A DNA stretch of 36,773 nucleotides from Acidobacteriota bacterium (GTDB lineage: Bacteria; Acidobacteriota; Thermoanaerobaculia; UBA5066): positions 1-36,773 of the forward strand of contig JAEUQS010000494.1 in assembly GCA_016789625.1 (NCBI GenBank), in the 5' to 3' direction. The position numbers were made by a program, and so were the translations under genes. Shown here piece by piece: positions 1 through 24,790 of the stretch. The notes under the pieces were generated by a model. That model saw only the letters and a list, made by a program, of their open reading frames with translations, searched no databases and was not told the origin of the DNA. Numbering within the stretch: position 1 is the first letter of the stretch; every line of letters begins with the position of its first letter.

Positions 1-3000
1 CTCGGCCCGCGGATATCCGGGTCGCCAGTAGTCGGGGAAGGCCTCCAGCTCGAGCCTTCGCGCCGGCTCGAACCGCGTCACGCGGAACGGGCCCGTGCCG
101 GCGGCGCCCTCGCGGTAGCTGCCGAAGACGTCCTCGACGCCCTCGGGCAATATCGCCGACGGCGCGAACGTGAGGAAGGCCGGGAAGAACGACACCGGCT
201 CCTCCAGCTCCAGCACGAACTCGTGCGTGCCCAAAATGCGGAAGCCCTCGAGGCCGACGGTGGGATCCTGGATGAACCTCTGCGCGCCCTTCACCGGGAA
301 CAGCACCCAGCGGTTCTGGCTGTCCCTGGTGCGGAGCAGGCGCTCGAACGTCCAGCGCACGTCGCGCACGGTCATCAGTCGCCCGTTGTGGAAGCGCACG
401 CCGTCGCGCAGGCGGAAGCGGAACTTCCGCCCGCCGTCCAGCGCCTCGAACTCCGAGGCCAGCCACGGCACGATGCGCGCGCCGTCGGTCTCCCGCGTGA
501 GCGTCTCGAAGACGTTGGGGAGCACCTCGCTCTGCCACACGAGGAAGACGCGCGCCGGGTCGATGTCGGCCACGTCGCCGGCGATGGGCACCGAGACGAC
601 GCCGCTCCCCTCGGCCTGGCGCGCGCCCGCGAGGCTCTCGTGCGGCGCGACGCCCAGGGTCTCGAAGTTCACGAAGGGCGCCGTGGAGCGCAGCGTCAGG
701 CCGCGCACCCTCGGGTGCACGGCGCGGACGTCCGTGTCGTGGAAGAGCGGGAGCAGCACGGCCCGCTCGTCGAGGTGGCTCTCGATCTTCTGGTAGAGCC
801 TCTCGCGCGCCTCCGGGCGGCCCTCGCTCCGGGCGTCCAGGATCAGGGCGTCCAGCTCGGGCGAGGAGTGGAAGCCGCGGAAGATCCCGGCCGACGAGTC
901 GAACAGCGTGAACGTGAAGTTGTCGGGATCGTCGTAGTCGGCGTTCCAGCGCCCGATCATGAGGTCCATCTCGAAGCGCCGCTCGAGGAACGACGGCATC
1001 GTCGTGGTGCCCACCACCACGTGGATCCCGGCCTCGGCCCACGTGGCGAGGAGCGCGTCGAGGAACGCGCGGTAGCGGCCCAGGAAGAGCGGGTGCACGG
1101 CGGCCGTGAGCGTCACGGGGAGCGTCTCGCCCTCGAGCTGCCGCGCGACCTCCTCGGCGGCGAGGCGCGGCCGTCGACGTCCCGGGTCGTGGCCGAGGAT
1201 GCCCGGCGGGAAGAAGCTCGTGGCCGGCTCCACGCCCTGTCCGAGCGAGCGCCGCACGATGTCGTGCGGACGCGGCAGGCCGAGGAGCACACGCGCGAGG
1301 CCCTTCCGCTTCCCGAGATAGCGGTCGTTGAGGAGCACGAAGTAGGAGTTGCGGCGCGGGCACTCGGTGAGCGACGTGCGGAACGCGCGGTCGCGCGAGA
1401 GCTCCTCGAGGCTCTCGGGCGGCAGGTTGCCCGCGACGTCCACCTCGCCCGCGCGGAGCGCGGCGACGACCTCCTCGGGACGCATGCCCAGGCGGAAGAC
1501 GAGCTGGGAGAGCCGCGGCGGCTCGTCGCTCTTGCGGAGCGGATTCCGCGCGAGGACGACCCAGCTCTCGTTGGCCTCGGCCACCACGAAGGGCCCGGTG
1601 CCGTGGAGCGCGGGCCGGCCCTTGGGGTCGACGCCCTCGCGCAGGACCATCGTCTCGGGGTGCGTGAGCAGGATGGGGTAGATGGGGAGCGGCTCGTCGA
1701 GCGTGAGGCGCAGCCGGCCGTCGTCGAGCACCTCGATGCCGATGATCTCGTCGGTCTCGCCGCGCAGGAAGGCCTGAGTCCCGGTGAGCGCCGCGAGGCC
1801 CGCGGGGAGGATGTCGGCCGCGGCGCGCGCGGCGCGCTCGAACGACGACTTCACGGCCGCCGCAGAGAGCGGCCGCCCGTCGTGGAACAGCACTCCGGGC
1901 GCGAGCGAGAACACGAACACCCGGCCGTTCTCGAGGGCCTCCCAGCGCGACGCGAGGCGTCCCGTGAGGTGGCCGCGGGAGTCGATCGCGGCGAGCGTCT
2001 CGCAGACGTTGGCGATGACCTCCACGTCCTCGTCGAGCCGCACGCGGGCCGGGTCGAGGGAGTGAGGCGTGGTGGCGAGCGCCACGGTGAGCGTGCCGCC
2101 GCGCGGGAGGTCGTGGTCGTGGCCTTCGCCCGGCGGGGCATGGAGCGAGGCCTGGTCGAGGTAGGCCCGGGCTCTTTCGAAATCGCCGCGCAGGTTCGCG
2201 AGCGTCGCGCCGAGCGAGAAGAGCCGCGCGAGCACCCCGGGCTGTGCCGTCTCGCGCCGCCGCGTGAGGGCCCGGTCGATCCACTTGCGGGCCTCCTCGG
2301 CGCGGAGCGCGTCCCAGGCCGTCTCGGCGCCGAGGAGGAGCGTCTCGAAGAGGCCCTCCTCGTCGCCGCTGTCGATCTGGGCCTCCGTGGCCAGCTCGAT
2401 CTCGCGAAGCGCCGACGCCGTGTTGCCCGCCATGCGGTGCGCGCGCCCGAGCACCAGGCGCACCTCGAGCGTCTTCGCGGCGCCCTCGCGGCCGTCGCCT
2501 TCCAGAAAGTCGAGAACGGTCCGGGCAACGCGAATGGCTTCCTCGGCGCTGAAGGAGTCGAGGCTCTTCTTCGCGAGGGCGAGGCCGTAGCCGACGACCT
2601 TCTCCTCGGCGTCGGCCTCGCCGAAATGGTGCACGAGCTGCGGGTACACACGGTCCAGGCGTCCCGCGTGCCGGCGCTCGAGCTCCTCGGCGTACTTCAG
2701 GTTCAGCGAGCGCCGCCGCCGCCGCGGCAGGGCCGCGTAGATCACCTCGCGGAGGACGCCGCTCGGAAACGAGAGCCGGTCGCCTCGCGAGAGGCGCTCT
2801 TCCTCGAGGAAGCCCGATTCGAGAAGCCCGTCCACGAGGTCCTCGAGCCCGTCCTCTCCGGCCAGGAACGCGAGGTCGGCGTACGAGAACGTCCGTCCCA
2901 GCACCGAGGCCAGCGAGAGCACCTCGCGCGGACGCGCGGGCAGCCGCTCCAGGCGGCGCTCCACGGCCTGCTGGATCGTGGCCGGCAGGGCGTCGGAGCC

Positions 3001-4830
3001 GAGGCCCGCCGTGCGCACGAGGGCGTGGCGTCCGCTCGAGTCCTGCCGGATCCCCGAGGAGTCCACGAGCGTGCGCACCAGCTCGCGCGTGAAATACGGG
3101 TTGCCCTCGGTGGCGGCGAAGAGCCGCGCGAGCAGCTCGTCCTCGATCTTCTGCGTGCCGAGCAGGCTCTCCACGAGCCTCTTGTGATCGTCCTGGCCGA
3201 GCGGCTTGAGCAGGAGCTTCGAGAAGCGCCGGTCGCCCTCGAAGCCCTCCACGAGCGCGAGCAGCGGATGGCGCTTGTCGACCTCCTCGCTCCGGTAGGT
3301 GCCCACGAAGAGCGTGGGCGTCGGGCCCATGCGGCGCACGGCGTACTGGAGCGCCTCGAGGGAGGCGTCGGCGAGGTGCAGATCCTCGAACGCGAGGATC
3401 ACGGGGCGTCCGCGGCCGATGCGCACGAGCGCGCGGGCGAGCAGCTCGAAGATGCGGTTGCGGTCCAGCTCACGTCGCGGAGGCGGCGCGCCCTCGGCCA
3501 TCGCGACGGCCACGGGCAGGTTCGCCCCTGAGGACTTGCTAAGCGCGGACCGGAAATCCTCGATCTCGGTGAGCTGCGGGAACAGCGTGACGAGGTCCTC
3601 GGCGAGGTCGGCGAAGTCGCTCTGCTTCGTCGTGCCCGAGGACGTCGGCGGCAGCGCGCGGAAGAAGGCCTGGATGAGGTCGCAAAAGCCCTGGTAGGGA
3701 AACGACCGGTCCTGGTCGGCGAGGCGCCCCGAGAAAAACGGCACCTTTCGGAAGCGTGCGAGGGTCTCGAGCTCCTCCAGGAGGCGCGTCTTGCCCACCC
3801 CCGTCTCGCCGGAAACGAGGACGAGCTGCGCGTCGTTGATCATGGCCGTGTTGAGCCGGCGCTGCAGCTCGGCCAGCTCGTTCTCGCGGTCCACGAGGGG
3901 CAGGCGCTGCGCCCTCTCGCGGCCCGGCGTGGGCGGCTCGTGCGCCAGCGACTTGTCGCGCTCGCTCTCGGCCATGTGCGACTGGTAGCGCTTGAGCGCG
4001 TCCGCGAGGGCCCCGGCCGTGGCGTGGCGCCGGGCGGGGTCCTTGTGGAGGCAGTCCATGATGATCGATTCCAGCTCGGGGTTGAGGCTCGCGCCGAGCG
4101 AGCGCGGCGTGGGCGGCGCCTCGTGCGCGATGCGGTAGCACACGGCCGCGAAATCGCCCGAGAACGGCGGCTCGCCGGTGAGGCACTCGAAGAGCACGAC
4201 GCCGAGGGAGTAGATGTCCGTCCGGGCGTCGATGGGCTCCGACGTGACCTGCTCGGGGCTCATGTAGGCGATGGTGCCCACGATGTCGCCGGCGTTCGTG
4301 AGGCGGTTCTCCGTGGACGCCGTGGCCAGGCCGAAGTCGGTCACGCGGATCCAGAGGCCCTCGGGCTTCCGCCGCGCGACGAGGAGGTTCTCGGGCTTCA
4401 CGTCGCGGTGGACGACGCCTTGCGCGTGGGCGGCGTCGAGCGCGAGGGCCGTCTGGAGGCCCACCTCGACGATGTCTCCGAGCTTCAGCGTGCCCTTGGC
4501 GAGCTCGGCCCTGAGGCTTTCGCCGGGCACGAGCGGCATGATGAAGAAGAGCGAGCGGTCGTGCTGGCCGATGTCGTGGACGGGCACGATGCCCGGGTGC
4601 TCGAGCCGGGCCACGATGCGCGCCTCGCGCCGGAAGCGCTCTTCCTTCTCGTCGGTCAGGAGGCTCGCCGTGAGCACCTTGATCGCGACGTCGCGCTCGA
4701 GGATCGGGTCCCGCGCGAGGTAGACGATGCCCATGCCGCCACGGCCCAGCTCGCGCAGGATCTCGTAGCGATCGAGGAGCTTCGTTCCGATCACGAAGCG
4801 GTGCTCCACGAGGGGAGTGACTTCCCGCAC
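1..4830 (-). CDS. Giant multidomain Ser/Thr protein kinase: Hanks-type kinase + AAA_16/STAND-type P-loop NTPase + TPR-like helical region + two tandem family-5 solute-binding (SBP_bac_5) domains. The C-terminus lies beyond the left window edge.
   Basis: Absent from the supplied ORF track because it has no in-window stop. The reverse-strand frame whose codon first bases fall on coordinates divisible by 3 is open from 4863 down to 1 (translated by eye). Candidate GTG starts are at 4830 and 4809; neither has a strong SD. Kinase domain (~3985-4767): VEHRFVIGTKLLDRYEILRELGRGGMGIVYLARD, VAIKVL, HRDVKPENLL, DFGLA, GTIAYMSPEQ. Walker A LVLVSGETGVGKT lies at 3787-3810, with a Walker-B-like VILAFEDLHLAD. 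A helical TPR-like stretch follows. SBP5 domain 1 (~655-2100) starts GGTLTVALATTPHSLDP. SBP5 domain 2 (1-~605) reads GVVSVPIAGDVADIDPARVF...GPFRVTRFEPARRLELEAFPDYW. I saw no TM-length hydrophobic segment. Confidence 0.85.
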   Translation of the reverse strand, partial: MREVTPLVEHRFVIGTKLLDRYEILRELGRGGMGIVYLARDPILERDVAIKVLTASLLTDEKEERFRREARIVARLEHPGIVPVHDIGQHDRSLFFIMPLVPGESLRAELAKGTLKLGDIVEVGLQTALALDAAHAQGVVHRDVKPENLLVARRKPEGLWIRVTDFGLATASTENRLTNAGDIVGTIAYMSPEQVTSEPIDARTDIYSLGVVLFECLTGEPPFSGDFAAVCYRIAHEAPPTPRSLGASLNPELESIIMDCLHKDPARRHATAGALADALKRYQSHMAESERDKSLAHEPPTPGRERAQRLPLVDRENELAELQRRLNTAMINDAQLVLVSGETGVGKTRLLEELETLARFRKVPFFSGRLADQDRSFPYQGFCDLIQAFFRALPPTSSGTTKQSDFADLAEDLVTLFPQLTEIEDFRSALSKSSGANLPVAVAMAEGAPPPRRELDRNRIFELLARALVRIGRGRPVILAFEDLHLADASLEALQYAVRRMGPTPTLFVGTYRSEEVDKRHPLLALVEGFEGDRRFSKLLLKPLGQDDHKRLVESLLGTQKIEDELLARLFAATEGNPYFTRELVRTLVDSSGIRQDSSGRHALVRTAGLGSDALPATIQQAVERRLERLPARPREVLSLASVLGRTFSYADLAFLAGEDGLEDLVDGLLESGFLEEERLSRGDRLSFPSGVLREVIYAALPRRRRRSLNLKYAEELERRHAGRLDRVYPQLVHHFGEADAEEKVVGYGLALAKKSLDSFSAEEAIRVARTVLDFLEGDGREGAAKTLEVRLVLGRAHRMAGNTASALREIELATEAQIDSGDEEGLFETLLLGAETAWDALRAEEARKWIDRALTRRRETAQPGVLARLFSLGATLANLRGDFERARAYLDQASLHAPPGEGHDHDLPRGGTLTVALATTPHSLDPARVRLDEDVEVIANVCETLAAIDSRGHLTGRLASRWEALENGRVFVFSLAPGVLFHDGRPLSAAAVKSSFERAARAAADILPAGLAALTGTQAFLRGETDEIIGIEVLDDGRLRLTLDEPLPIYPILLTHPETMVLREGVDPKGRPALHGTGPFVVAEANESWVVLARNPLRKSDEPPRLSQLVFRLGMRPEEVVAALRAGEVDVAGNLPPESLEELSRDRAFRTSLTECPRRNSYFVLLNDRYLGKRKGLARVLLGLPRPHDIVRRSLGQGVEPATSFFPPGILGHDPGRRRPRLAAEEVARQLEGETLPVTLTAAVHPLFLGRYRAFLDALLATWAEAGIHVVVGTTTMPSFLERRFEMDLMIGRWNADYDDPDNFTFTLFDSSAGIFRGFHSSPELDALILDARSEGRPEARERLYQKIESHLDERAVLLPLFHDTDVRAVHPRVRGLTLRSTAPFVNFETLGVAPHESLAGARQAEGSGVVSVPIAGDVADIDPARVFLVWQSEVLPNVFETLTRETDGARIVPWLASEFEALDGGRKFRFRLRDGVRFHNGRLMTVRDVRWTFERLLRTRDSQNRWVLFPVKGAQRFIQDPTVGLEGFRILGTHEFVLELEEPVSFFPAFLTFAPSAILPEGVEDVFGSYREGAAGTGPFRVTRFEPARRLELEAFPDYWRPGYPRAE

Positions 4831-4917
4831 GCGCGTGTCTCTTGCCGGGGCATGGCGTGCGGATCATAAAGAGCCCGGCTTAAACTTTGTCCACCATGAA
4901 GCGTTTCTGGATTTCCA
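4831..4917. promoter_or_regulatory. Divergent promoter region between the kinase gene and the 4-TM protein gene.
   Basis: This is one of the most AT-rich stretches I noticed (GGATCATAAAGAGCCCGGCTTAAACTTTGTCCACCATGAAGCGTTTCTGGATTTCCA) and sits between divergently oriented starts. I cannot assign specific -35/-10 elements. Confidence 0.3.
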
Positions 4918-5907
4918 ATGCCCGCTGAGGGACGGAAGGTCGCTCCCGGCTACACGAGCGTGGGCGGGACGGGAGGGACCGGCGGTGGCTGCGCCATCGC
5001 GTTCGGGTTCCCGTTCATGGCCGCCGGGATCGGCATGCTCGCGGTCGGGCTCGGAGCGTTCGGAACGTTCGAAGGCCCCCGGATCGTCCTCTTCGCGATG
5101 GGCTGCGTCTTCTTTGCCGCGGGCTTCTTCGTGGCGTATCAGGGGGTTTCGGCGATCCTGGCTCTCAAGGCCGCGGCACGGCGGCAGGCCGAGCATCCCG
5201 GAGAGCCCTGGTACGTCGATCACCCCTGGGATCCCTCCGGTGCGACCCACGGCGGGATCAAGGGCCTGATCGGCGGGTTCCTCGGGCTCCTCTTCTTCGG
5301 CGGCTTTCTCACGCCGTTCAACTGGTGGGCCTGGTTCTCGAACGAGGGCGTGCTGCCCGTGAAGATCCTGGTGAGCCTCTTCGACCTGATCCTCCTCGCC
5401 TGCGTCTTCGCCTGGGTGTACGAGGTCCTCAGGCGCACGAAGTACGGCGTCAGCATGCTGCGCTTCGGGACGTTTCCGTTCTTCCTCGGCGAGCCGCTCA
5501 CCGTGTACCTGCAGGGCGCCTCACGGATCGCGGGCTACACGAAGCTCACGGCCACCCTCCGGTGCGTGGAGGAGGTGACCGAGCGGAAGACGAGCACCGA
5601 CTCGAACGGCCGCACCACGACCACGCAGACGACGGTGGGCTACATCGTCTGGGAGGAGACCCGCGCGTTCGCGCCCGGCGAGGTGAAGCTTCCGGAGGCC
5701 GGCAAGGCCCGCCTGTTCCAGCTCTGGCGCCCGAAGGACGAGCTGTCGGAGTGGCGCCTGGAGTTCGACCTCCCGCAGGGAGACGGGGCCCGCCCGTCGC
5801 AGCTCCTGAACGACGACAACAAGTTCGTGTGGCAGCTCGTGATCTCGGCGGAGACCCCGGGCCTCGACTACGACGCGACGTTCCTCCTCCCGGTCTACGC
5901 CCGCTGA
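4918..5907 (+). CDS. Hypothetical integral membrane protein: four predicted TM helices plus a C-terminal ~170-aa beta-rich soluble domain.
   Basis: ATG ORF with protein-like composition. Hydrophobic stretches: CAIAFGFPFMAAGIGMLAVGLGAF, IVLFAMGCVFFAAGFFVAYQGV, GLIGGFLGLLFFGGFLTPFNWWAWF, VKILVSLFDLILLACVFAWVYEVL. The C-terminal region (FPFFLGEPLTVYLQG...LTATLRCVEE...WRLEFDLP...VWQLVISAE) has an alternating beta pattern. I recognise no family. It is divergent from the kinase gene across an AT-richer ~90-nt spacer. Confidence 0.75.
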   Translation: MPAEGRKVAPGYTSVGGTGGTGGGCAIAFGFPFMAAGIGMLAVGLGAFGTFEGPRIVLFAMGCVFFAAGFFVAYQGVSAILALKAAARRQAEHPGEPWYVDHPWDPSGATHGGIKGLIGGFLGLLFFGGFLTPFNWWAWFSNEGVLPVKILVSLFDLILLACVFAWVYEVLRRTKYGVSMLRFGTFPFFLGEPLTVYLQGASRIAGYTKLTATLRCVEEVTERKTSTDSNGRTTTTQTTVGYIVWEETRAFAPGEVKLPEAGKARLFQLWRPKDELSEWRLEFDLPQGDGARPSQLLNDDNKFVWQLVISAETPGLDYDATFLLPVYAR

Positions 5908-5962
5908 GACCGGCGCGGGATCCGGGCGGTCCGGTGCGTTCGTAGAATGCGGCGTTCGCCGG

Positions 5963-8527
5963 GTGGCGAACACGACGAACCACATGCAGCAACCTGCGAT
6001 ACCGCCCGAGGTGGCAGAGGCTCTCCACGAGCTTCAGCTGTACTTCGCCGACACCATGCCCCCGCTCATGGCCGTGGACGCCGTGGAGACGCTGATGTCC
6101 CAGCCGCCCGCGCTCACGGGCGATGTCATCAACGGGTGGGCGGCGGGGCAGTACCAGGGGCGCGGCGCGTCGGTGCCGTTCTCGGATCTCCTCTTCCACG
6201 CGGTGAAGAAGATCCACCTCCTCGGGGAGTACAAGCTGGTCGAGGCCGCGCGCATCGAGCGCTTCATCGCGTCGCTCGCGCCCATCGTCGAGCAGCTCTG
6301 CCCTCCGGGAGACCGGGACTTCTTTCGCACGAACCTCTCGCGCATCGGCCTCAGCCCCACGCTCCTCACGTCGCACACGGCGCCCATCTACCGGCAGGCG
6401 GGCTCCGAATCGCCGCTCGCCGTGCCGCCGCCCACACGCCTCCCGGGGGCCGTGGCCGCGACCCCGACTTTCGGTGGCCTGGGCGTGCCCGGCTCGACCG
6501 GCTCCGCGCTCGCGTCGGCAGCGGCAGCGACGGCGGCGACCGCTGCGACGGCGCGTGCGACCGAGCAGATGGTCGAGGGGCTCAGGCGATTCGAGCTGCT
6601 CCTCGCGCGCATCGCGCCGGCGGTCCCGGCATCCGCGGGCGTCAGCCCGGCGCCTCCGGCCCTCGTCTCCGAGGCCGCCTCGCACGCGAAGAACGAGGCC
6701 GAGCTCGTGTCCAGCCTCGCGAAGCTCGGCGGGCTCGGCTACGACACGGCCCCGTCGAGCGTCGTGCGGGCGCTGGGGCAGAGCCTGCCGGAGTGGGGTG
6801 TCGCGCCGCCCTCGGGCCCGGACGCCTCCTCGCCCGGCGCCCTGTCGGCCATGGGGCGCTACATCTCCATGGCCGATCCCAGCGAGGGTCTGCGCCGCTA
6901 CCGCGAGATGCTCCAGACGGCCATCGAGCAGGCGAACGACGGCTCCCTCGCGCGGGCCGTGCTGATGTTCGAGCTGGCCGACCGGCTCGTCGCCGAGAGA
7001 AAGGTCGACAAGAGCGCCGCCGACCCGCTCCGCTCGTCCATGGGCGCGGCGCTCGACGTCGACCGGCTCCGCGCCGCGGGGGAGAAGCCCGAGAAACGCA
7101 TCCTCGTGCGTTCGATCCTGGCGTTCTTTCCGGCGACCTCGGTGCGCGGCCTCCTGGAGGCCCTGAAGACCGAGGAGCGCCGCGACGGCCGCCGCAACCT
7201 CCTCGCGCTCCTCGACGTCCACGGCCTGCCCGCGCGCGAAGCCGCGCTCTCCGACCTCGCCAAGGCCGTGGAGGATCCTCACGGCGCGCCCGACTGGTAC
7301 TACCTGCGCAACCTCTTGAACGTGCTGCGGCGGGTTCCCCGCCCCGAGGGCGCCTCACCGGAAGGCGAGCTGGGATTCCTGGATCTCCTCGCGGGCAAGG
7401 TGCAGCCCGCCGCCCTCGCGAAGGAGGCGCTGTTCAACATCGGGCAGATCAAGCACCCGAAGGCCGAGACGCTCCTCGTGGACAAGCTGAAACGGCTCGA
7501 GACGCTGCGCATCGGTGAGGAGGCCTCGCAGTACAGCCACGAGGAGCTGGACCAGCTCCTCGACCGCGCGACGAGCGGCCTCGTCCGCATCGGCACACCC
7601 TCGGCGATCCGCGCCATCGTGGAGCACGCCCTGAAGCGCGACGCGCGGCTCGGGGACACCATGCCGCGCCTCGCGCAGCTCTCGACCCTCGACCTCACGG
7701 TCGATCCCCCGTCCCTCGAGACGCTCCTGCGGGCGCTCGAGAAGGAGATCCCCCGCAAGGTCTTCGGCCTGATGGTGAAGGAGGAGAGCCCGCGGCTCGT
7801 GCAGTACGTGGCGGCTCTCTCGGGCACGCCGGCGCCCTCGGTGAGGGAGCTGCTGGGAGACCTCTCCCGGAAGTTCCCCGAGAGGGAGCTCGGCCGCGCG
7901 GCGACGAAAGCCCTCTCGGCCCTCGTCGCGCTCGAGGCCTCCCGCAAGGAGAAAGAGCCCACGACGCTCGGCATGACGGGGGATCTCGAGGTCTTCGGGC
8001 TTCCCATGCTCACGCAGACGCTGGCGCAGAGCGAATCCACGGGAACGCTCCTCCTGAAGCCGAAGGACGGTGGCCCGCCCGCGAAGCTCACTCTCGAGGC
8101 CGGCCGGGTGCGCCACGCCGCGCACGGCACGCTGAAGGGGGCGGAGGCCGTGTACCAGCTCCTCGAGCGGCCGCTCGAGGGCTCGTTCCAGTTCGTGAGG
8201 AAGCCGGCCGTGAGGAGCGCCGACGACGCGTTCCAGCCGGCCTCGGACATCATCCCCCTGCTCTTCGAGGGGATGCGCCGCTACGACGAGCTGAGGCGGT
8301 CTTGCGAGCTCGTGGGCGACCTCGTGAGGCTTTCGCCCACCGGGAAGAAGCCGTCGCTCCCCTCCCACGAGAACGACGGCAACCTCGTCCGCACGGTGTG
8401 GGCGGGAGCCGCGGCGGGAGCGACGGCCTTGCAGCTCGAGCGGGCGTCGAGCGTCGACGCGTACCGCATCCGGCGCCTTCTGGCCCACTGGGTCGAAGAG
8501 GGCTCGATGGAAGCCCGCCCTACCTGA
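5963..8527 (+). CDS. Large HEAT-like repeat protein with a C-terminal DUF4388 (PATAN-like) domain.
   Basis: 854-aa ORF with a GTG start at 5963 (alternative ATG at 5984). HEAT-like segments include GTPSAIRAIVEHALKRD and LLALLDVHGLPAREAAL. The C-terminal GDLEVFGLPMLTQTLAQSESTGTLLLK...GAEAVYQLL matches the DUF4388 signature (G.L..f.l.dllq.l.....tG.L) as I remember it. A low-complexity Ala/Thr/Pro linker spans about aa 150-290. Confidence 0.8.
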   Translation: MANTTNHMQQPAIPPEVAEALHELQLYFADTMPPLMAVDAVETLMSQPPALTGDVINGWAAGQYQGRGASVPFSDLLFHAVKKIHLLGEYKLVEAARIERFIASLAPIVEQLCPPGDRDFFRTNLSRIGLSPTLLTSHTAPIYRQAGSESPLAVPPPTRLPGAVAATPTFGGLGVPGSTGSALASAAAATAATAATARATEQMVEGLRRFELLLARIAPAVPASAGVSPAPPALVSEAASHAKNEAELVSSLAKLGGLGYDTAPSSVVRALGQSLPEWGVAPPSGPDASSPGALSAMGRYISMADPSEGLRRYREMLQTAIEQANDGSLARAVLMFELADRLVAERKVDKSAADPLRSSMGAALDVDRLRAAGEKPEKRILVRSILAFFPATSVRGLLEALKTEERRDGRRNLLALLDVHGLPAREAALSDLAKAVEDPHGAPDWYYLRNLLNVLRRVPRPEGASPEGELGFLDLLAGKVQPAALAKEALFNIGQIKHPKAETLLVDKLKRLETLRIGEEASQYSHEELDQLLDRATSGLVRIGTPSAIRAIVEHALKRDARLGDTMPRLAQLSTLDLTVDPPSLETLLRALEKEIPRKVFGLMVKEESPRLVQYVAALSGTPAPSVRELLGDLSRKFPERELGRAATKALSALVALEASRKEKEPTTLGMTGDLEVFGLPMLTQTLAQSESTGTLLLKPKDGGPPAKLTLEAGRVRHAAHGTLKGAEAVYQLLERPLEGSFQFVRKPAVRSADDAFQPASDIIPLLFEGMRRYDELRRSCELVGDLVRLSPTGKKPSLPSHENDGNLVRTVWAGAAAGATALQLERASSVDAYRIRRLLAHWVEEGSMEARPT

Positions 8528-9104
8528 GCGTCTCCTCGATCTTCGCGGTCAGCTCCTTGGACATCGGCTCCGTCGCCGAGCCGTAGCGGGCGACGACCTT
8601 GCCGTTCTTGTCGAGCAGGAACTTGCCGAAGTTCCACTTGATGTCGCCTTCCATCCCGGGCCGCGACGTGAGCCACGCGAACAGCGGATCGATGCCCGCG
8701 CCCTTCACGCTGACCTTCTCGAAGAGGTCGAACGTGGTCTTGTACTTCGTGGTGCAGAACCCCTTGATCTCGCTGTTCGTGCCGGGCTCCTGAGCGCCGA
8801 AGTCGTTCGCCGGGAACGCCAGCACCGCGAGGCCCTGGCCCCTGTACTTCTGGTGGAGCTCCTCGAGCCCCGCGTACTGCGGCGTGTAGCCGCACTTGGA
8901 CGCGGTGTTCACGATGAGAAGGGCCTTGCCCTTGTAGGCGGCGAGGCTCTTCTCCTCGCCATCGATGGTCTTGACCTTGAACGCATGCGCGGAATCGACG
9001 GACACCTTCGTCTCCTTGGTGTTGGTTGCGGGGGTGACGGCTTGCGCGGCGAATGCGGCGAGTGCCGTGACGCCGAGGACGGTCAGACAGAGAACGGGTT
9101 TCAT
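8520..9104 (-). CDS. gpx: Glutathione peroxidase (Cys type), secreted or periplasmic.
   Basis: Motifs NTASKCGYTPQY, LAFPANDFGAQEPG and IKWNFGKFLLDKNGKVVARY. Signal peptide MKPVLCLTVLGVTALAAFAAQA. GAGGAG SD lies ~9 nt upstream. The catalytic residue is encoded by TGC (Cys), not TGA. Its 3' end overlaps the convergent 5963-8527 gene by 8 nt. Confidence 0.93.
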   Translation of the reverse strand: MKPVLCLTVLGVTALAAFAAQAVTPATNTKETKVSVDSAHAFKVKTIDGEEKSLAAYKGKALLIVNTASKCGYTPQYAGLEELHQKYRGQGLAVLAFPANDFGAQEPGTNSEIKGFCTTKYKTTFDLFEKVSVKGAGIDPLFAWLTSRPGMEGDIKWNFGKFLLDKNGKVVARYGSATEPMSKELTAKIEETLR

Positions 9105-9156
9105 TGAGTACGCTCCTCGCTCAACCTTACGTCCTTTTCCCCCATCCGGATGACAC

Positions 9157-9174
9157 GGGGCCCGGAGCGGCCCC
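9157..9174 (-). terminator. GC-rich hairpin (GGGGCC-N6-GGCCCC) at the 3' end of the ADOP gene. No U-tract.
   Basis: Perfect 6-bp inverted repeat read directly. It is followed on the minus strand by the 10-bp palindrome CATCCGGATG. With no T-run, intrinsic terminator function is uncertain. Confidence 0.25.
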
Positions 9175-11693
9175 TACTCCTGCCGAAGGGCCACGGCGGG
9201 GCTCACCCGGGTGGCACGCAGCGCGGCCACGGTGCCGGCGCCGAGAGCGGCGATCGAGAGCGTCGCGCTGGCCAGCGCCAGCACGACGACGTCGTGCGAG
9301 GAGACGCCGTAGAGCTGCGACTCGACGAGCTTCCCCGCCGCGAGCGAGAGCGGCAGCCCCACGAGGATGCCGAGGCCCGCCATGCCGCCGGCGTCCCGCA
9401 GCACGAGGCGGAGGACGCTGATGCGGGTCTCGCCGAGCGCGAGCCGGATTCCGAACTCGCGCGTCCGGCGGGCCACGAGGAACGCCACGACGCCGTAGAG
9501 GCCGATGGCCGCCAGCAGCGTCGCGAGGACGCCGAAGCCCGAGCACAGGAACGCCACGACGCGCTCGGCGGTGAGCGAGCCCTCCACCTGGACCCGCATC
9601 GTGCGCACCTCGAAGATGGGGAGATCGCTGGCGACGCCACGCGCCGCCTCGCGGATGGCCGGGAGGAGAGCCTTCGCGTCCTTCGCCGTGCGCACGTAGA
9701 TCGTCGCCTGGTCGAGCTCCTTCTGCTGGAGGAGCGGAAGGTAGATGAACGGCCGCGCCGGCTCGCGGAGCCCCATGTACTTGAGGTCGCGGGCGACCCC
9801 CACGATCTGGATCAGCTCCTTGTCGGGATCCTCCTTGCGCCCGAAGTGCAGCGTGCGGCCCAGCGGGTGGGCCCCGTCGCAGTACATCTTCACGAACGCC
9901 TCGTTCACGACGGCGACCTTGGGGGCCTCGAAGGAGTCGGACGCGGTGAAGCCGCGGCCGAGGAGGAGCGGAATCCCGAGGGTCTCGAAGAACTCCGGCG
10001 CGATGGCGTTGACCGAGGGGTTCCGGTCTTCCCCCTTGCGGGCCTCGTGACCCACGACGGTCGTGGTCGAGCGCCAGTCGTTCCCCGAGAGGAGCGCGAT
10101 GCCCGCGGCGCTCGTGGAGACGACGCCCGGAACCGTCGACACGGCCTCCCGCACGCGCCCGAGGATCGCGGCCGTCTCCGCGCGGCCGTGTCCGTTGAGA
10201 GAGGGGTCGATCGCGAAGCTCGCGACGTCGGCCGTGCGGAAGCCCGGGTCCATCGTGGCGAGGGAGGAAAGGCTCCTCGCGAAGAGTCCGGCGCCCACGA
10301 GGAGAAGGAGCGACAGGGCCACCTGCGCGACCACGAGGGCCCGGCGCGCGCGGACGGCCCCGCGAGAGAGGGAGACGCTGCCCGCGCCCTCGCGGAGCGG
10401 CTCGATCAGGGAAGAGTCCGACGCTTGAAGCGCGGGGAAGAGGCCGAAGGCCAGAGCCGTGAACGCCGACACCCCGAACGCCACGAGCGCGACCCGGAGG
10501 TCGGGGCGGGTCGCGAGGTTCGCGAGGCTGCTCCCCTCGGGAAAGATCCTCACGATCGCGTCGCCCAGGAGCGACGCGACGAGGAGGCCGAGCGCTCCGC
10601 CCGAAAGCGCGAGGACGAGGCTCTCGACCAGCAATGGCTCCACGATCTGGCGGCGCGAGGCGCCCATCGCGAGCCGCACGGCCATGTCCCGCTGGCGGGT
10701 CGCGGCCCTCGCGAGGAGGAGGTTCGCGACGTTGGCGCAGGCGATGAGGAGCACGAGCGCGACGAGGCCCATGAGCACGAGGAGCGGCGTCTTCATGCGG
10801 TTGCGGAGCTCCGAGCGGCCGAGGGCGCCCGGCGCGACGAGGAGCACCTTCTTCACGAACTTCGCCCGGAACTCGGCGTCGGCGTCGGCCCAGAGAGCGA
10901 CGTCGCGCTCGTGGATCTGCTTGTAGAGGACGTTCAGCGCGGCGGTGGCCTTCTCGAGGGGAACGCCCGGCGCGAGGCGGCCCATCATGGAGACCCAGCG
11001 CGTCTTGCGGTCCTCGAGCTGGTCCCACGTGGGCGTGGCCCAGGCCTTCATGGTGAGCGGGAGGTAGATGTCGGGGAGCACGCCCGTCTCGAGCCCCGTG
11101 AAGCCGCGGGGCGCGACTCCGAGGATCGTGAAGGGGTGGCCGTTCACGAGGATGGGCTTCGCGAGCGCCTGCTCGTTCCCTCCGAAGCGGCGGACGAAGT
11201 AGCCGTGCGAGATCACGGCCACGGGGTGGGCAAGCGGGGTGACGTCGTCCTCGGGACCGTAGAAGCGGCCCCAGTGGGGCGTGAGCCCCAGCGTCTGCCA
11301 GGCGTTGCCCGAGAGGAGATCCCCGTCCACGCGCTCGGGCGAGGAGCCCACGGTCACGTTCACGGTGACCGGCAGCCGGCCGACGAGACCGGCGAGGACG
11401 CCGTTCGAGCCCTGCGCGAGGTCGCGGTACACGGGGTAGGAGAACGTCGCGTCGTTGTGGGTCCAGCCGATGAACGTGCCCTTGTCGTCGAACGTCACCA
11501 GCTCCTGAGGGTTCGGGACCGGGAGCGGGCGGAGCAGGAGCTGGTCGAGGAGCGTGAAGATGGCGGTGTTGGCCCCGATGCCGAGCGCCAGGGTGAGGAT
11601 GACGGTTGCCGTGAAGCCCGGCGTCTTCGCGAGCGAGCGCAGCGTCTGGTTGAGGTTCGTGTGGAGGAAGGTCCGGCTGCTACGGCTGCTCAT
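9174..11693 (-). CDS. ADOP-family permease (acidobacterial duplicated orphan permease; MacB-like periplasmic domain + FtsX-like, duplicated).
   Basis: 839 aa. The N-terminus LRSLAKTPGFTATVILTLALGIGANTAIFTLLDQLLLRPLPVPNPQELV is the typical ADOP/FtsX-like start. There are two FtsX-like 4-TM blocks. No adjacent ABC ATPase is present. Confidence 0.9.
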   Translation of the reverse strand: MSSRSSRTFLHTNLNQTLRSLAKTPGFTATVILTLALGIGANTAIFTLLDQLLLRPLPVPNPQELVTFDDKGTFIGWTHNDATFSYPVYRDLAQGSNGVLAGLVGRLPVTVNVTVGSSPERVDGDLLSGNAWQTLGLTPHWGRFYGPEDDVTPLAHPVAVISHGYFVRRFGGNEQALAKPILVNGHPFTILGVAPRGFTGLETGVLPDIYLPLTMKAWATPTWDQLEDRKTRWVSMMGRLAPGVPLEKATAALNVLYKQIHERDVALWADADAEFRAKFVKKVLLVAPGALGRSELRNRMKTPLLVLMGLVALVLLIACANVANLLLARAATRQRDMAVRLAMGASRRQIVEPLLVESLVLALSGGALGLLVASLLGDAIVRIFPEGSSLANLATRPDLRVALVAFGVSAFTALAFGLFPALQASDSSLIEPLREGAGSVSLSRGAVRARRALVVAQVALSLLLLVGAGLFARSLSSLATMDPGFRTADVASFAIDPSLNGHGRAETAAILGRVREAVSTVPGVVSTSAAGIALLSGNDWRSTTTVVGHEARKGEDRNPSVNAIAPEFFETLGIPLLLGRGFTASDSFEAPKVAVVNEAFVKMYCDGAHPLGRTLHFGRKEDPDKELIQIVGVARDLKYMGLREPARPFIYLPLLQQKELDQATIYVRTAKDAKALLPAIREAARGVASDLPIFEVRTMRVQVEGSLTAERVVAFLCSGFGVLATLLAAIGLYGVVAFLVARRTREFGIRLALGETRISVLRLVLRDAGGMAGLGILVGLPLSLAAGKLVESQLYGVSSHDVVVLALASATLSIAALGAGTVAALRATRVSPAVALRQE

Positions 11694-11752
11694 CGCCTGC
11701 GCCCTTGAGAACCTCGTGCCAGGGATTCGCCCGGAATTCGGGGCCCGGGTGT

Positions 11753-11769
11753 CCGCGTCTGGGACGCGG
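11753..11769 (-). terminator. Hairpin CCGCGTC-TGG-GACGCGG between the SBP5 lipoprotein and ADOP genes.
   Basis: Perfect 7-bp stem with a 3-nt loop, read directly. No U-tract. Confidence 0.25.
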
Positions 11770-11792
11770 TGTCCCGCAGCCGGGTCACGGGG

Positions 11793-13328
11793 TCACTTCG
11801 TCTCGAAGCCCATGTCCTGCGCGAGGACGTAGTTGTCGTTGCGCGGCGGAAAGAGCACGCCCTCGCGCACGAGGTAGACCTCGTCGTCGATGTAGAGAGG
11901 AACCCAGCCGAGGTCGTCCATGACGATCGCCATGATCCGCTGCAGGAGCGGGCCGCGCCGGCCCATGTCGAGCACCGAGAGGCTCTCCTCGATGAGGGCG
12001 TCCAGCTGGGGGTTCGAGTACTGCCCGGAGTTGGAGGAGCCCCACCGGCCGACCTGGTCGGACGAATGGACGAAGTTGTCGAGGAGGTCGCTCGCGTCGC
12101 CGGTCGGGCAGCCGTATCGCGAAAGGAAGAACTGCGCCTTCCGCGAGGTCACGAGGTCGAAGTACTCGGCGTCGGGCAGCACCACGACCGTCGTGCGGAT
12201 TCCCACGGCCGTGAGCAGGGCCCCCACCTTCGCGGCCGTCTCGGCGAGGAGGCGGCGGGCGTGCAGCGTGACGTCGATGCCGTCCGGATGACCGGCCTCG
12301 GCGAGGAGCGCGCGGGCCTTCACCGGGTCGAACCCGAGCTGCGGCAGGTCGGGGTTGAAGCCGAAGATGAACGACGGGACGATCTGGGTCGCGGGGGCTC
12401 CCGCGAGGCCGAGGTCCTTGAGGAGCGCCCTGCGGTCGATCGCGAGGCTGGCCGCGCGGCGCACGCGCACGTCGCGGAAGGGGCTCTTGCGGCGCTCGTC
12501 CGTCTCACCGTGCAGCGGGGTGAGGTCGAACCCGAGGGACTTCACGAAGATGCCGCTCTGCCGCACGGTGCGGTAGCCGGGGACGGCGTTCTCGCCCACG
12601 AGCCGGGGGCCCGTCTGCACCACGTCGGCGCGCCCGGAGCGCGCGTCCTCGAGGGCCTTCCCGGGGGTGCGGCCGAGGAGCAGCGTCACCCGCGAGGCCG
12701 CGGGTTTCTCGCCCCAGTACGCGTCGTTCCTCCTGAACGAGACGCGGGTGCCCGGCTCGAACGACTCCAGCGCGTAGGGGCCGGTGCCCACGAGGGAGCC
12801 CGCGAGGTTTCCCTTCAGCGCGTCGGCCTTCGCGATGAGCACGAAGCGGAGCTTGTTGAGGAGCACGGCCATCGGCGTCTTCGTGTGGAGCTCGAAGACG
12901 TGGTCGTCGAGCGCCTTCACGCGATCGATGTTCACGACGTAGCCCGAGGCCCCGAGGTTCGGGTCGGCGAGCAGCCGCTGGAACGTCGCCTCGACGTCGC
13001 GCGCCGTGAGGGGCGTGCCGTCGTGGAACACGGCCTCCCGCCTCAGGTGGAAGACCCAGGTGTGCGCATCGGGGTTTTCCCAGCGCACGGCCAGGGCGGG
13101 CCGCATCGTCATCTCGCGGTCGGCGGCGACGAGGGCCTCGTACGAATGCTGCAGCACCGAGTAGCTCGCGAGCCGGTTGTGGAGGTGGGGGTCGAGGGAG
13201 GTCAGCTCGAAGGACACCGAAACCGTGAGCTCCCGCGCCTTTCCCGACGGTCTCCCTCCGCCCCGGCAGGAGACGAGGCCGAGCAGGAGACCCGCGACGA
13301 GAGGGGCGACCGTGCGCGTGCGCCGCAT
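11793..13328 (-). CDS. Family-5 solute-binding lipoprotein (peptide/nickel-type ABC SBP fold), orphan.
   Basis: The real start is MRRTRTVAPLVAGLLLGLVSC (lipobox LVSC) at 13328. The track ORF 11793-14267 over-extends upstream across the neighbouring gene. SBP_bac_5-like motifs: FHDGTPLTARDV, GTGPYALESFEPGTRVSFRRNDAYWG. It sits 17 nt downstream of the GT-C gene stop. Confidence 0.9.
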   Translation of the reverse strand: MRRTRTVAPLVAGLLLGLVSCRGGGRPSGKARELTVSVSFELTSLDPHLHNRLASYSVLQHSYEALVAADREMTMRPALAVRWENPDAHTWVFHLRREAVFHDGTPLTARDVEATFQRLLADPNLGASGYVVNIDRVKALDDHVFELHTKTPMAVLLNKLRFVLIAKADALKGNLAGSLVGTGPYALESFEPGTRVSFRRNDAYWGEKPAASRVTLLLGRTPGKALEDARSGRADVVQTGPRLVGENAVPGYRTVRQSGIFVKSLGFDLTPLHGETDERRKSPFRDVRVRRAASLAIDRRALLKDLGLAGAPATQIVPSFIFGFNPDLPQLGFDPVKARALLAEAGHPDGIDVTLHARRLLAETAAKVGALLTAVGIRTTVVVLPDAEYFDLVTSRKAQFFLSRYGCPTGDASDLLDNFVHSSDQVGRWGSSNSGQYSNPQLDALIEESLSVLDMGRRGPLLQRIMAIVMDDLGWVPLYIDDEVYLVREGVLFPPRNDNYVLAQDMGFETK

Positions 13329-18217: not shown

Positions 18218-18686
18218 TCACGCGGCCCCAGCCGCGCCACGCGAGGTCGCGCGTCTCCGTGTCCACGACGTCGATCACGACATTCGCCTCGTTGAGCTTC
18301 GTCACCGTCGTGTAGCCCGAGCGCCACCGGCCGTAGCGCCCGTACGCGTAGCCCCAGTGATCGACCTCGATGCGCTCTTTCGTCGTCACGTGGGCGGCGA
18401 CGCGGAAGTCGGGCTTGCCGCCCAGCTTCTCGACGAAGCCCTTGGCCGTGAGCTCGCGTCTCACGGCGTCCTCGATGCGTTTCATGGTGATGGGGCCGGC
18501 GCTCCGGCCGCGGTCGCGGTCGCGGTCGCGATCCCGGTCCCGCGAGGGGCGCTCCATGATGGAGAACGACTTCATCGCGCGGAAGTTCACGCCGGGGTCG
18601 TAGTCGGCGTCGACGACGATGCCCGAGCATCCGATCGTGCCGGCGAGCGTGGCCAGGAGGAGAAAGGAAAGCGCTCCACGTTTCAT
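18135..18686 (-). CDS. DUF4136-family lipoprotein with an internal (Arg-Asp)n repeat.
   Basis: MKRGALSFLLLATLAGTIGCSG (lipoprotein signal), GGAGG SD upstream, and a C-terminus ...ETVTKILAQFPPSRG typical of DUF4136. Contains SRDRDRDRDRDRGRS. Confidence 0.8.
   Translation of the reverse strand: MKRGALSFLLLATLAGTIGCSGIVVDADYDPGVNFRAMKSFSIMERPSRDRDRDRDRDRGRSAGPITMKRIEDAVRRELTAKGFVEKLGGKPDFRVAAHVTTKERIEVDHWGYAYGRYGRWRSGYTTVTKLNEANVVIDVVDTETRDLAWRGWGRVIIEPGERAGQLDETVTKILAQFPPSRG
18505..18546 (-). repeat. Imperfect hexanucleotide array (CGGTCG-like x ~6), coding (Arg-Asp)n.
   Basis: CGGCCG CGGTCG CGGTCG CGGTCG CGATCC CGGTCC, read directly. Encodes SRDRDRDRDRDRGRS in the DUF4136 lipoprotein. Confidence 0.85.
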
Positions 18687-18841
18687 CGGAGACCTCCAGA
18701 GGGAAGGACGCGCGGCCCGGGCGGGGAGGTTACCCGCCGCCTGCGCGCCGCTGCGGCAGAATGCCTGCGTCTTCGAACGGCCGTTTCTCCGCCGGGGATC
18801 GCGGGATCGAGAGACCCCGGGGAACGAATGCAGAGGTGCCC

Positions 18842-21037: not shown

Positions 21038-21045
21038 TCTCCCTC

Positions 21046-23661
21046 ATGCCGTTCACCTTCAACGGATTCGGAAGCCGGTACGCCGGCAGGAAGAACGTCA
21101 CGGCGCGGGCGGGCGTCTGTCCACAGTGCGGCCGCAAGACGACGCTTCAGTCCTACGACACGCGCGAGTTCGTCTGTGTCCTCTTCGTGCCCCTCGTCCC
21201 GCTGACGCGGTACCGCATTCTCGACGACTGTACCTCCTGCCGGCGCCATCACCGCGTGAAGCTCGCGGTCTTCGAGGAGCGGCTGAGCCGCGAGGCCGGG
21301 CCGCTGCGGGCCCGCGCGCGTGCCCGATCCACCGATCCGGCGGCCCACGCGGCGCTCGCCGCGAAGCTTCTCGAGCTGAGCCTCGCGGCCGAGGCGGAAG
21401 CGGCGGTCCACGAGGGGCTCCGGAGCGTTCCGGGAGACGGCCTCCTGAGCCGCTGGGCGGGCGAGCTCGCCATGGAGCGCGGGGACTTCGCCGGGGCGGT
21501 TCCCCACCTGCGGGTCGCCGCGGGCTCTCTGAAGGGCGACGCGCGCGCGCACCGGGCGCTCGGGCACGCTCTGCTCGTCTCGAAGCAGCCCTCCGAGGCG
21601 ACCGCGGCGCTGGAGGCGGCCCTCAGGATCGATCCCAACGATGTCGCCGCGCTGGACCTCGTCGCGGACGCGCATCGGGATTCCGGCAATCACTCGGCCG
21701 CTCTGTACGCCCTCGACGCGCTCACCGCCATCGCGCCGGCCCTCGCGACCGATCCCGGGATCCTGCGCCGCAAGAAGGCCTGCAAGGAGCATCTCGGGTT
21801 TCCGGTCACCGAGGACGAGCGCAAGGCCACGAGCCTCGCGGGGGGCGCGCGAGCGTGGCTCGCGAGGGAGACCGGCGGTTTCGGCCTCCGGCCCGTGCTC
21901 GTGGTCCTCGGCGTGGTCGCGGCCGGCGCGGTCGCGTTCCTGGGCGTCGCGGCCTGGAACCGCAGTCACATCACCGTGTACTTCGACAACGCGCTTGCGA
22001 AGGAAGTGACCGTGACCGCGGGCTCTCACAAGGTGGTCCTGCCTCCGGGCGAGAGGCGGATGAAGGAGCTGTCGCCCGGAACGTACACGTTCGTGGCGCG
22101 GGCCAACGGAAAGGAGCTCGAGCGGTTCGAAGGGGTCCTCGTGGCTCCGCCGCTCTCCCAGGCTTTCGACAAGCCTCCGTTCTACGTCTACGACGTGATG
22201 GAGGCCCGCATCTACGACCGCTACGCCGTGGTCTACCAGGCCAAGGACGCGCCGCCCCGGGACCCACCCAAGGCCGAGACCATCGCGTTTCGTCGCTTCT
22301 TCTCGCAGGCGGGCGTGGATTACGCGTTTCGGGAGGCTCCCGACGAGCTGAACATCGGCAAGGCCCGCGAGGCCACGCGGATCGTCTTCGACGCCAGCGA
22401 GAAGACCTTCAACACGGTGGCCGCGCGGCTCTGGGACGAGGGCAAGCCGAAGGAGTCGGAGAAGGCGGTCCACAAGGCCCTCGAGCTGGATCGCTGTGAC
22501 GCGCAGGCCTGGCGAAACCTCCTGCAGATCCTGGAGCTCGGCGAGCGCGAGGGCGAGGCGCCCGCCGTCGCGAAACGCTGGATCGAGACCTGCCCGAAGA
22601 GCGCGCTCGAGGCCCACTCGGCCTACCAGGACGCCCGGGTCTCGAACGACGAGGGGGCCCAGGTCGTGGCCGAGTACGCCGAGCTCGCCCGGAAAGAGCC
22701 CGGCAGCGCGCGGAATCACTATCTCTACGCCCGGGTGCTCCAGGATGCCGAGGCCGCGCTCCTCGAAGACCTCGAGGCGCTGCGGCTGGACCCCGGTTTT
22801 CTGCTGGCGCACGTCGCGGCGGGGAACGAGCTCTTGCGGATGGCGCGGCCGGCAGAGGCCTACGAGCACCTCAAGGCCGGCATCCCGGCCGACTGGTCTC
22901 AGGTTTGGGCGCTCACGCGGGGCGCCATCGCGGCCGGCAAGGCCGCCGAGGCTCTCACCGTCCTCGAGCCTGCCGCAAAACGCGAGGACGCCTCGATCGA
23001 TCGGGCGCGTTTCGATCTGAGCCTCGTGGCCGGGGATTTCCAGACGGCGCGGATGCTCCTCGGAAAGCTGGAAAAGTCCGTCAAGGAGGAGACCGCGGAG
23101 CTCCGCTCCCGGCGGATCGATCTCTTCCTCGCGGAGGGGAAGGCGGCGGAAGCCGACGCGCTTCTCGAGGCCACGCCCGCGCTGCCGAGGTTCGGGTTCT
23201 TCGTGCGGAGCACCCGGTTCCAGCGGCATCTCGAGGAGGGCCGCTTCGCCGAGGCGGCCGATTCGCTGACGCCCAAGGAGGGAGAGGCCCCGCTCCACAC
23301 GACGTACCGGATGCACGCCGCGGCCGCGCGCCTCGTGGCCGGACAAAAAACCCAGGCCGCGGCGGAGCTGTCGAAGCTCCTCCTCGCCTCCGAGGAGGAC
23401 GACGAGGAGGCGTATCTCTCGGAGGGTGATCGCGCGCTCGTCGAAGCGCTGCTCGGAAGGAAGAGTCCGGAGGCCGCCCTCCTCGTCTCCAAGGCCGAGG
23501 ACCCGGGGTTCCTGCCGCACGCGCACTGTCTTCTCGGGATGCGCGCTCTGGCCTCGGGCGATCGCGCGGCGGCCCGGACGAGCTTCGCGGAGGCCGTGCG
23601 GCTCAGCGGAGGCATCGGCTTCCCCGGAGGCTTCGCGCGCCGGAGGGTCGAGAGCCTCTGA
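21046..23661 (+). CDS. Zinc-ribbon + TPR + single-TM + periplasmic beta/TPR-like protein (871 aa).
   Basis: The ATG at 21046 is 8 nt after the upstream TAG. The N-terminus has a 4-Cys zinc ribbon: [10 protein letters not shown]...CPQCGRKTT...[25 protein letters not shown]-like helices include [25 protein letters not shown] helix: [24 protein letters not shown]. After the TM come a beta-rich segment and long TPR-like helical repeats. In the track it is embedded in the 1680-aa ORF 18619-23661, whose first ~800 aa are shadow. Confidence 0.8.
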
Positions 23662-24764: not shown

Positions 24765-24790
24765 GCATCGAGCGGGAGCGGAGCAACGAG

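Follow-up and report, generated by a model that had tools for sequence, protein, structure and literature searches.

STAND proteins such as MalT, Apaf-1, the NLRs and Avs are central signaling and immune switches in which a C-terminal sensor (usually TPR, WD40 or LRR) sets the input, and effector swapping is typical of their effector, nucleotide-oligomerization domain (NOD) and sensor logic. SgrR, a cytoplasmic regulator that senses small molecules with a solute-binding domain of the SBP_bac_5 (SBP5) family, is a precedent for an intracellular SBP5 sensor. The stimuli of bacterial Hanks kinases are mostly unknown. Here, we describe a gene at the left end of a 36,773-nucleotide stretch of an Acidobacteriota bacterium (contig JAEUQS010000494.1; the whole stretch is hereafter called the window), which encodes, in order, a Hanks kinase, a STAND NTPase, a TPR arm/sensor region, a complete SBP_bac_5 domain and part of a second one. 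Its product is referred to as the kinase-STAND protein.

MalT of E. coli and PH0952 of P. horikoshii (6MFV) have the same order of effector, nucleotide-binding, helical and winged-helix domains (NBD-HD-WHD), arm and TPR sensor. Walker A, Walker B and the GxP motif are common to them and the window protein, with PH0952 as the best and MalT as the third structural match. MalT is the paradigm of a cytoplasmic switch triggered by a small molecule (PMC4381067, PMC6468293). The effector of the window protein differs in being a kinase and not a DNA-binding domain, neither MalT nor PH0952 has two SBP_bac_5 domains of ~490 aa after the TPR, and in the NOD the sequences have diverged too far for a match to any PDB sequence. 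An N-terminal Hanks kinase followed by AAA_16 and TPR is likewise seen in mycobacterial PknK-type kinases, which consist of kinase, AAA_16 and MalT-like TPR, and in the TOMM kinase/cyclase fusion TIGR03903. Both are without SBP_bac_5, and TIGR03903 matches the window protein with 296 bits in two stretches against a cutoff of 705.75, with no Pfam cyclase domain, so that the protein falls outside that family.

The sensor half resembles OppA, MppA, DppA and NikA, which both fused SBP domains match full-length in sequence and fold. These proteins are periplasmic, whereas the fused domains form a C-terminal tandem in a predicted cytoplasmic protein, without a signal peptide, lipobox or permease/ATPase genes. 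In SgrR a single SBP5 is joined straight to a winged helix-turn-helix (wHTH), and STAND, TPR and kinase are absent; the window protein has no HTH and is not an SgrR. With Avs and the bacterial NLR-like proteins it shares the STAND fold and the effector-NOD-sensor logic, and one relative even has a SIR2 effector. However, no PADLOC Avs model matched, no defense-island context was seen in the window or in three homologous loci (L001-L003), and the sensor of Avs is a TPR that binds phage proteins while that of the window protein is of a small-molecule-binding type, which probably places the protein outside this group as well.

The features of the gene are given below, with residues numbered from GTG 4830.

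1..4794 (-), coding sequence of the kinase, STAND, TPR and two SBP5 domains, 3' end cut by the window edge (stop-free frame; G+C at third codon positions, GC3, 0.95)
3961..4767 (-), Hanks-type Ser/Thr kinase domain, aa 22-290 (Pfam Pkinase, 6e-50; NCBIfam PknB-type, 301 bits)
4729-4746 (-), kinase glycine loop, G-loop (motif mapping)
4678-4689 (-), kinase VAIK, aa 48-51 (motif mapping)
4387-4410 (-), kinase HRDVKPEN, aa 141-148 (motif mapping)
4330-4338 (-), kinase DFG, aa 165-167 (motif mapping)
4252-4260 (-), kinase SPE, aa 191-193 (motif mapping)
2761..3897 (-), STAND module NBD-HD-WHD, aa 312-690 (Pfam AAA_16, 5.5e-20; AlphaFold2, AF2, model; Foldseek)
3787-3810 (-), Walker A GETGVGKT, aa 341-348 (motif mapping)
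3376-3396 (-), Walker B LAFEDLH, aa 479-485 (motif mapping)
3091-3108 (-), GxP motif, EGNPYF (motif mapping)
2131..2760 (-), helical arm and TPR region, aa 691-900 (weak Pfam TPR_12/TPR_MalT; PDB profile matches; AF2 model)
646..2103 (-), SBP1, first SBP_bac_5, complete, aa 910-1395 (PF00496; phmmer OppA/MppA; AF2 model; Foldseek)
1..594 (-), SBP2, second SBP_bac_5, N-terminal ~200 aa, aa 1413-1610 (second PF00496 stretch)

A sequence-only reading of the window, made by a model without database searches, had described the gene as one uninterrupted frame with no stop in the window and had taken the plus-strand open reading frames (ORFs) listed over it for antisense shadows. Both descriptions held. 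Computational translation of the reverse strand gives a frame open from 4863 to base 1 (1,621 codons) that runs off the left window edge, with no stop or frameshift between the kinase/STAND and SBP parts, and the ORFs at 223-3531 and 3940-4869 (+), present in the mechanical ORF list, are its shadows. G+C by codon position is 0.74/0.47/0.95, the pattern of other clear genes of the window and a coding signature in DNA of 70% G+C. The start had to be moved. Downstream of the in-frame stop at 4864-4866, the candidates are GTG 4830, GTG 4809, GTG 4794 and ATG 4734, and GTG 4794 is the most likely, rather than 4830 as first read, because GGAG lies 9 nt upstream and the resulting MIGTKLLDRYE... agrees with the homologue N-termini MIGSKLAERYE.... 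From GTG 4794 the in-window product has ~1,598 aa against ~1,885 aa expected for the complete protein, and ~285 C-terminal residues lie past the left edge. Public contigs extend past base 1, and the missing C-terminus can be recovered from one of them, a 6,288-bp contig of run X2 that reaches ~3.9 kb beyond the left end.

Independent public contigs also cross the domain junctions, among them this X2 contig, covering window 1-2347, and an X5 contig covering 1-4204. No indels were found among them in the compared stretch (window 1-2000), which lies in the SBP part. Here, strain variants occur at 40 sites, 33 of them in third positions, with 34 synonymous and 6 non-synonymous changes; the gene is conserved under purifying selection. 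Over window 1-4204, several metagenomes from activated sludge, sludge, wastewater and groundwater contain the gene with 98-100% identity, and one run labeled as a metatranscriptome contained a few short contigs with 95-97% identity. The sludge metagenomes and a nearby gene for an ADOP ("acidobacterial duplicated orphan permease") make an activated-sludge acidobacterium the probable source of the window.

The kinase that had been read by eye from its VAIK, HRDVKPEN, DFG and SPE motifs has every hallmark of the Hanks type (PF00069), i.e., G-loop, beta3 Lys, HRDxKxxN, DFG and an APE-type motif, and Pfam Pkinase covers aa 22-275 with 170 bits (cutoff 31.7). Throughout 120 homologues the G-loop, K51, H141-R142-D143, K145, N148, D165-F166-G167 and S191-P192-E193 are invariant. 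Conserved threonines, T178 among them, are found in the activation loop.

An AAA_16/STAND-type NTPase with GETGVGKT and ILAFEDLH and a TPR-like region had been proposed behind the kinase, and both are found. AAA_16 matches aa 312-509 with 73 bits (cutoff 32.6). In the same 120 homologues, G341, G344, G346 and K347 of Walker A are invariant, and the first acidic residue of Walker B (hhhhE[D/N]) is E or D in all. In the EGNPYF motif, E575 and N577 are invariant and G576 and P578 are kept in at least 90% (30 sequences); the role of GxP in the STAND helical domain has been described (PMC6468293). The protein thus shows the P-loop NBD with Walker A/B, the NBD-HD-WHD-arm layout and the helical-domain GxP that define STAND proteins. 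PDB searches with the STAND region, as a single sequence and as a profile, yielded TPR proteins only and no NOD match, so that structure prediction was needed to place it. The AF2 model of aa 296-905 (predicted local distance difference test, pLDDT, 79) matched PH0952 (6MFV) best in Foldseek (1e-11), then Apaf-1 (3sfz), MalT (8bob), Avs3 and CED-4, and Avs5 was also matched. Pfam TPR_12 / TPR_MalT match weakly at aa 762-894, and the region is modeled as all-helical hairpins with pLDDT 85-95.

Two consecutive SBP_bac_5 domains had been claimed at the C-terminal end. PF00496 does match in two stretches (234 bits against a cutoff of 32.4), although only ~40% of the second lies within the window and the rest lies beyond its edge. 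Both begin as a mature periplasmic SBP would, SBP1 with GGTLTVAL..., and SBP1 carries the signature RWNADYDDPDNF at 916-951 (-). OppA aligns to SBP1 end-to-end in phmmer (4.5e-28, query residues 15-475 of 488), as does MppA, and the AF2 model of SBP1 (pLDDT 77, with low-confidence loops at residues 231-255 and 395-401) matches OppA, MppA, DppE and NikA at E~1e-30 in Foldseek, with the best TM-scores for open, unliganded forms. The part of SBP2 in the window is 35% identical to SBP1 and aligns with the complete second SBP of full-length homologues, one of which matches 8upi (1.9e-35), MppA, OppA and NikA in structure comparison. NCBIfam models of Opp/Nik-type binding proteins also match the protein, and an SgrR-like model matches SBP2 at aa 1439-1602 with 44.5 bits, against a cutoff of 476.

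Both SBP domains are of normal length (~490 aa) with the full three-lobe cluster-C fold, and both retain the R-W-x-x-D-Y-x-D-P-D-x-F signature, whose W-x-x-D-Y-x-D-P-D-x-F part is kept from OppA and its relatives. Of the OppA contact residues, only the equivalents of Trp416 and Asp419 can be mapped with confidence. At these positions of SBP1, W is present in 115/120 homologues and D in 120/120, and both residues are conserved in SBP2 as well. Asp419 of OppA binds the peptide N-terminus.

Neither a signal peptide nor a transmembrane (TM) helix was found in the kinase-STAND protein, as had been noted by eye, or in 119 homologues when scanned by Kyte-Doolittle hydropathy (19-residue mean). The highest mean is 1.48 in the window protein and ~1.7 in any of the homologues, against 2.2-2.8 for TM helices of a neighboring permease, and the N-terminus leads straight into the kinase glycine loop. 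Since it has no hydrophobic segment and starts with a kinase, the protein is predicted to be cytoplasmic. Databases label the family "ABC transporter substrate-binding protein". The SBP domains start at aa ~910 and ~1413 with neither signal peptide nor lipobox, no BPD_transp_1/Opp/Dpp-type permease or ATPase occurs in any window ORF scanned, and no conserved neighbor links the fused domains to a cognate permease/ATPase across 26 loci. By these predictions, the label fails on two counts, the export signal and the linked permease.

Relatives number in the thousands in database searches. For the best 119, the alignment is collinear along 98-99% of the in-window sequence with 45-50% identity, and the survey of the architecture proposed by the sequence-only reading gave >100 full-length homologues, mostly in Acidobacteriota, with each domain at 40-58% identity. 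Homologues have either ~1,885 aa or, where the N-terminus bears a further kinase domain, ~2,150 aa; the shorter ones contain the whole of SBP2 and stop directly behind it. The same collinear architecture is present in 25 GTDB genomes (contigs of one genome per species), with full-length matches nearly all in Acidobacteriota, namely Thermoanaerobaculia, Vicinamibacteria, Pyrinomonadaceae and Chloracidobacterium, and one in a metagenome-assembled genome labeled Planctomycetota. Some assemblies have two copies of the gene. Members from several acidobacterial classes are 45-70% identical, and their domains are uniform in length.

A STAND-TPR profile was searched against 1.84 billion representative proteins and the top matches were scanned with Pfam. 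The STAND-TPR-SBP5 core was found behind one kinase, with two SBP5 domains or with one (~1,380 aa), and behind two kinases. In other relatives, Pfam placed SIR2_2 plus a kinase (P0175), an OmpR-type winged helix (Trans_reg_C; P0129, P0216 and P0222) or two XRE-type HTH_3 domains (P0210) before the core, and P0135 has the core with no extra N-terminal domain. This range marks the core as a sensor/switch cassette with swappable effectors that works in the cytoplasm, because the versions with DNA-binding effectors can act only there. Kinase-AAA_16-TPR proteins without SBP5 exist, e.g., in Planctomycetota (L031), and Ser/Thr kinases have already been placed in the MalT family; the novelty therefore is the SBP5 sensor and not the pairing of kinase and STAND. 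No description of a STAND- or Hanks-kinase-linked SBP_bac_5 protein was found in the literature searched.

The explanation we favor, with somewhat more confidence than doubt, is a soluble cytoplasmic STAND signaling protein in which an N-terminal Hanks kinase provides the output, the TPR region and two export-less OppA/MppA-like SBP5 domains form the sensor, and a ligand releases the switch. It draws on the observed domain order, intact motifs and folds, on the lack of signals for export or the membrane, on purifying selection and on the recurrence of the core with DNA-binding effectors. The sequence-only reading had arrived at cytoplasmic SBP sensors wired to a STAND switch and a kinase output too, and the Trans_reg_C and HTH_3 variants of the core lend this support.

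A mechanism can be sketched on the MalT/PH0952 scheme (PMC4381067, PMC6468293) and on the double autoinhibition model of STAND proteins, whose MalT family includes Ser/Thr kinases (PMC6468293). By analogy with MalT, PH0952 and Apaf-1, sensor and arm would clamp the ADP-bound NBD shut at rest. A small cytoplasmic ligand, most plausibly peptide-like with a free amino group, would be caught by one SBP5 domain or by both, in the Venus-flytrap cleft, and release the autoinhibition. Exchange of ADP for ATP and multimerization would follow, and the clustered kinase domains would trans-autophosphorylate their activation loops and go on to phosphorylate downstream targets. Beyond the presence and integrity of the domains these steps are drawn by analogy; ligand binding, ligand identity, oligomerization and kinase targets are what we infer.

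Several observations weigh against this explanation. For the SBP cleft the picture is mixed: the SBP1 fold and the Trp416 and Asp419 equivalents are kept, but other OppA contacts are lost, with Arg413 aligned to Ile and Tyr109 in a gap. Since not all ligand-contact positions of OppA are kept, a peptide ligand is only a guess. Ligands of the closest relatives with solved structures include oligopeptides, murein tripeptide, nickel complexes and other compounds, and no one type of ligand is preferred throughout the SBP_bac_5 family (PMC10443332). In Walker B, the window protein has Asp as the second acidic residue where 70/120 homologues have Asn (hhhhEN), so that many family members may bind ATP yet hydrolyze it poorly or not at all. 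The AF2 models are moderate (pLDDT 77-79, predicted TM-score ~0.5) and were built from shallow alignments of 14 database sequences, and the ligand, the oligomer and phosphorylation are all predicted here from sequence and models. The SIR2 effector of P0175 is more typical of immune STAND proteins. Lastly, when the ORFs flanking the gene in 26 loci were compared all against all, no conserved neighbors that point to a pathway emerged, with nothing common to more than four loci beyond the gene and its antisense shadows.

The lost contact residues also leave room for SBP5 domains that are blind to ligands and act as protein-protein or scaffold modules, e.g., in substrate docking, in self-association or purely as autoinhibitory lids. 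Binding of proteins is common among TPR and other STAND sensors (PMC13581612), and the two poorly modeled loops of SBP1 would fit such a role. We nevertheless consider it unlikely, as a domain relieved of ligand binding would have to have kept its full three-lobe fold, its normal length and, in both copies, the W..D..DPD.F signature with the Asp419 equivalent. The SgrR match in NCBIfam, together with the role of SgrR, adds a precedent for small-molecule sensing by a cytoplasmic SBP5. Still further from what we expect is an artefactual fusion, whether a chimera of the assembly, a pseudogene or two adjacent genes read through, or export of the SBP part. The gene does run off the contig with its end unseen, and high-GC DNA gives long spurious ORFs. 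The collinear architecture in >100 independent proteins and 25 GTDB genomes, the independent contigs that span the junctions, the lack of indels over window 1-2000, a GC3 of 0.95 and the excess of synonymous variants exclude an assembly or read-through artefact, and the lack of TM segments and signal peptides and the existence of DNA-binding variants speak against export, which makes this whole set of explanations extremely improbable.

An Avs-like immune STAND, in which the SBP5 domains would recognize a phage peptide or protein and the kinase would serve as an abortive-infection or alarm effector, is suggested by the STAND fold, which Foldseek matched to Avs3 and Avs5 among others, by SIR2_2 ahead of the kinase in P0175, by the defense-pair-like neighbors of a wHTH relative in L084 and by matches of the Hanks kinases to the PD-T4-6, mad6 and PglW models. 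All PADLOC matches, however, are confined to the generic kinase domain (aa ~15-330) with none on the STAND or sensor part, and filing the protein as a defense system was rejected for this reason. The genes flanking it in the window and in L001-L003 are housekeeping genes, its identity and even domain lengths are maintained across acidobacterial classes, strain variation is strongly purifying and not diversifying, and the sister architectures have DNA-binding effectors as in MalT/AfsR-type regulators. An immune role is accordingly doubtful in our view, and we retain the ligand-released cytoplasmic signaling protein.

A more specific and rather speculative version of that signaling protein has the STAND-TPR-2xSBP5 part as an intracellular receptor for short peptides, either imported oligopeptides or products of cell-wall recycling such as murein tripeptide, an idea prompted by MppA and DppE being among the closest solved relatives. 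If true, Acidobacteriota would answer to the level of peptides in the cytoplasm through an NLR-like oligomerizing switch, with Ser/Thr phosphorylation as the output or, in the wHTH/HTH variants, transcription. This would be a functional parallel to muropeptide sensing by NOD1/NOD2, with a transporter binding protein in place of the LRRs.

The favored explanation offers a testable model in which a Venus-flytrap domain would gate a STAND oligomerization switch, and a possible handle on the signal input of bacterial Hanks kinases. It would correct a widespread transporter label on many acidobacterial proteins. The family is large, in a phylum that has received little study despite its abundance in soil and sludge, and the ligand of the family could reveal a major nutrient- or envelope-sensing pathway.

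Peptidase or oligopeptide-transporter genes adjoin the gene in 3/5 homologue loci with Pfam-annotated neighbors, which is only a hint as to the ligand because no neighbor family is conserved across the 26 loci. Beside kinase versions, L001 has a Peptidase_M2 gene (7640-9463, +) plus OPT and amino-acid permeases, and L003 a Peptidase_S15 gene (2156-4123, +). In L084 (5290-7304, -; 3389-5245, +), the wHTH variant adjoins an AAA_15/21/23 ATPase with a 191-aa gene, a defense-pair-like arrangement, and a Peptidase_M14 gene. In genomes rich in peptidases, the adjacency in these three loci may be a coincidence.

The strand opposite to the kinase gene encodes, upstream of that gene in the window, an 894-aa protein that carries a DUF4388 (PATAN-like) domain at its C-terminus (5843-8527, +). 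A homologue with 38% identity over 878 aa lies directly downstream of the orthologous kinase gene in L019 (11695-14289, -), a partial homologue is present in L034 (15992-17638, -) and a 51-aa match in L030. As only 3-4 of the 26 loci are involved and positions vary, the DUF4388 protein was not adopted as a partner; the link is suggestive but weak. Between the two genes lies a 329-aa ORF (4918-5907, +; GC3 0.91) with no Pfam/NCBIfam match and no counterpart in 25 related loci.

A third, orphan SBP5 lipoprotein unaccompanied by an Opp/Dpp-type permease or ATPase had also been reported from the bare sequence, and it was recovered with a lipobox, next to an orphan permease:

11793..13328 (-), SBP_bac_5 lipoprotein, 511 aa (lipobox LLGLVSC; PF00496, 3e-65; tblastn)
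9177-11792 (-), ADOP duplicated orphan permease (TIGR03434, 835 bits)

The lipoprotein is ~25% identical to the fused SBP domains. The permease, made of two MacB_PCD+FtsX halves without an ATPase, directly abuts it, and the two orphans are apparently paired in one operon.

Farther along the window, gene calls are ambiguous at 18619-25867, where a 1,680-aa ORF with TPR matches only (18619-23661, +) is overlapped by a 949-aa minus-strand ORF and several other long ORFs, and a DAO oxidoreductase is found at 23430-24761. A 929-codon frame at 31780-34566 (-) matches tyrosine phenol-lyase (TIGR02618, 843 bits) at aa 480-927 only. Its upstream 480 in-frame codons match no family but look coding by GC3 (0.95 for the whole frame); they may extend the protein at its N-terminus, belong to another gene in that frame or simply reflect an ORF called too long.

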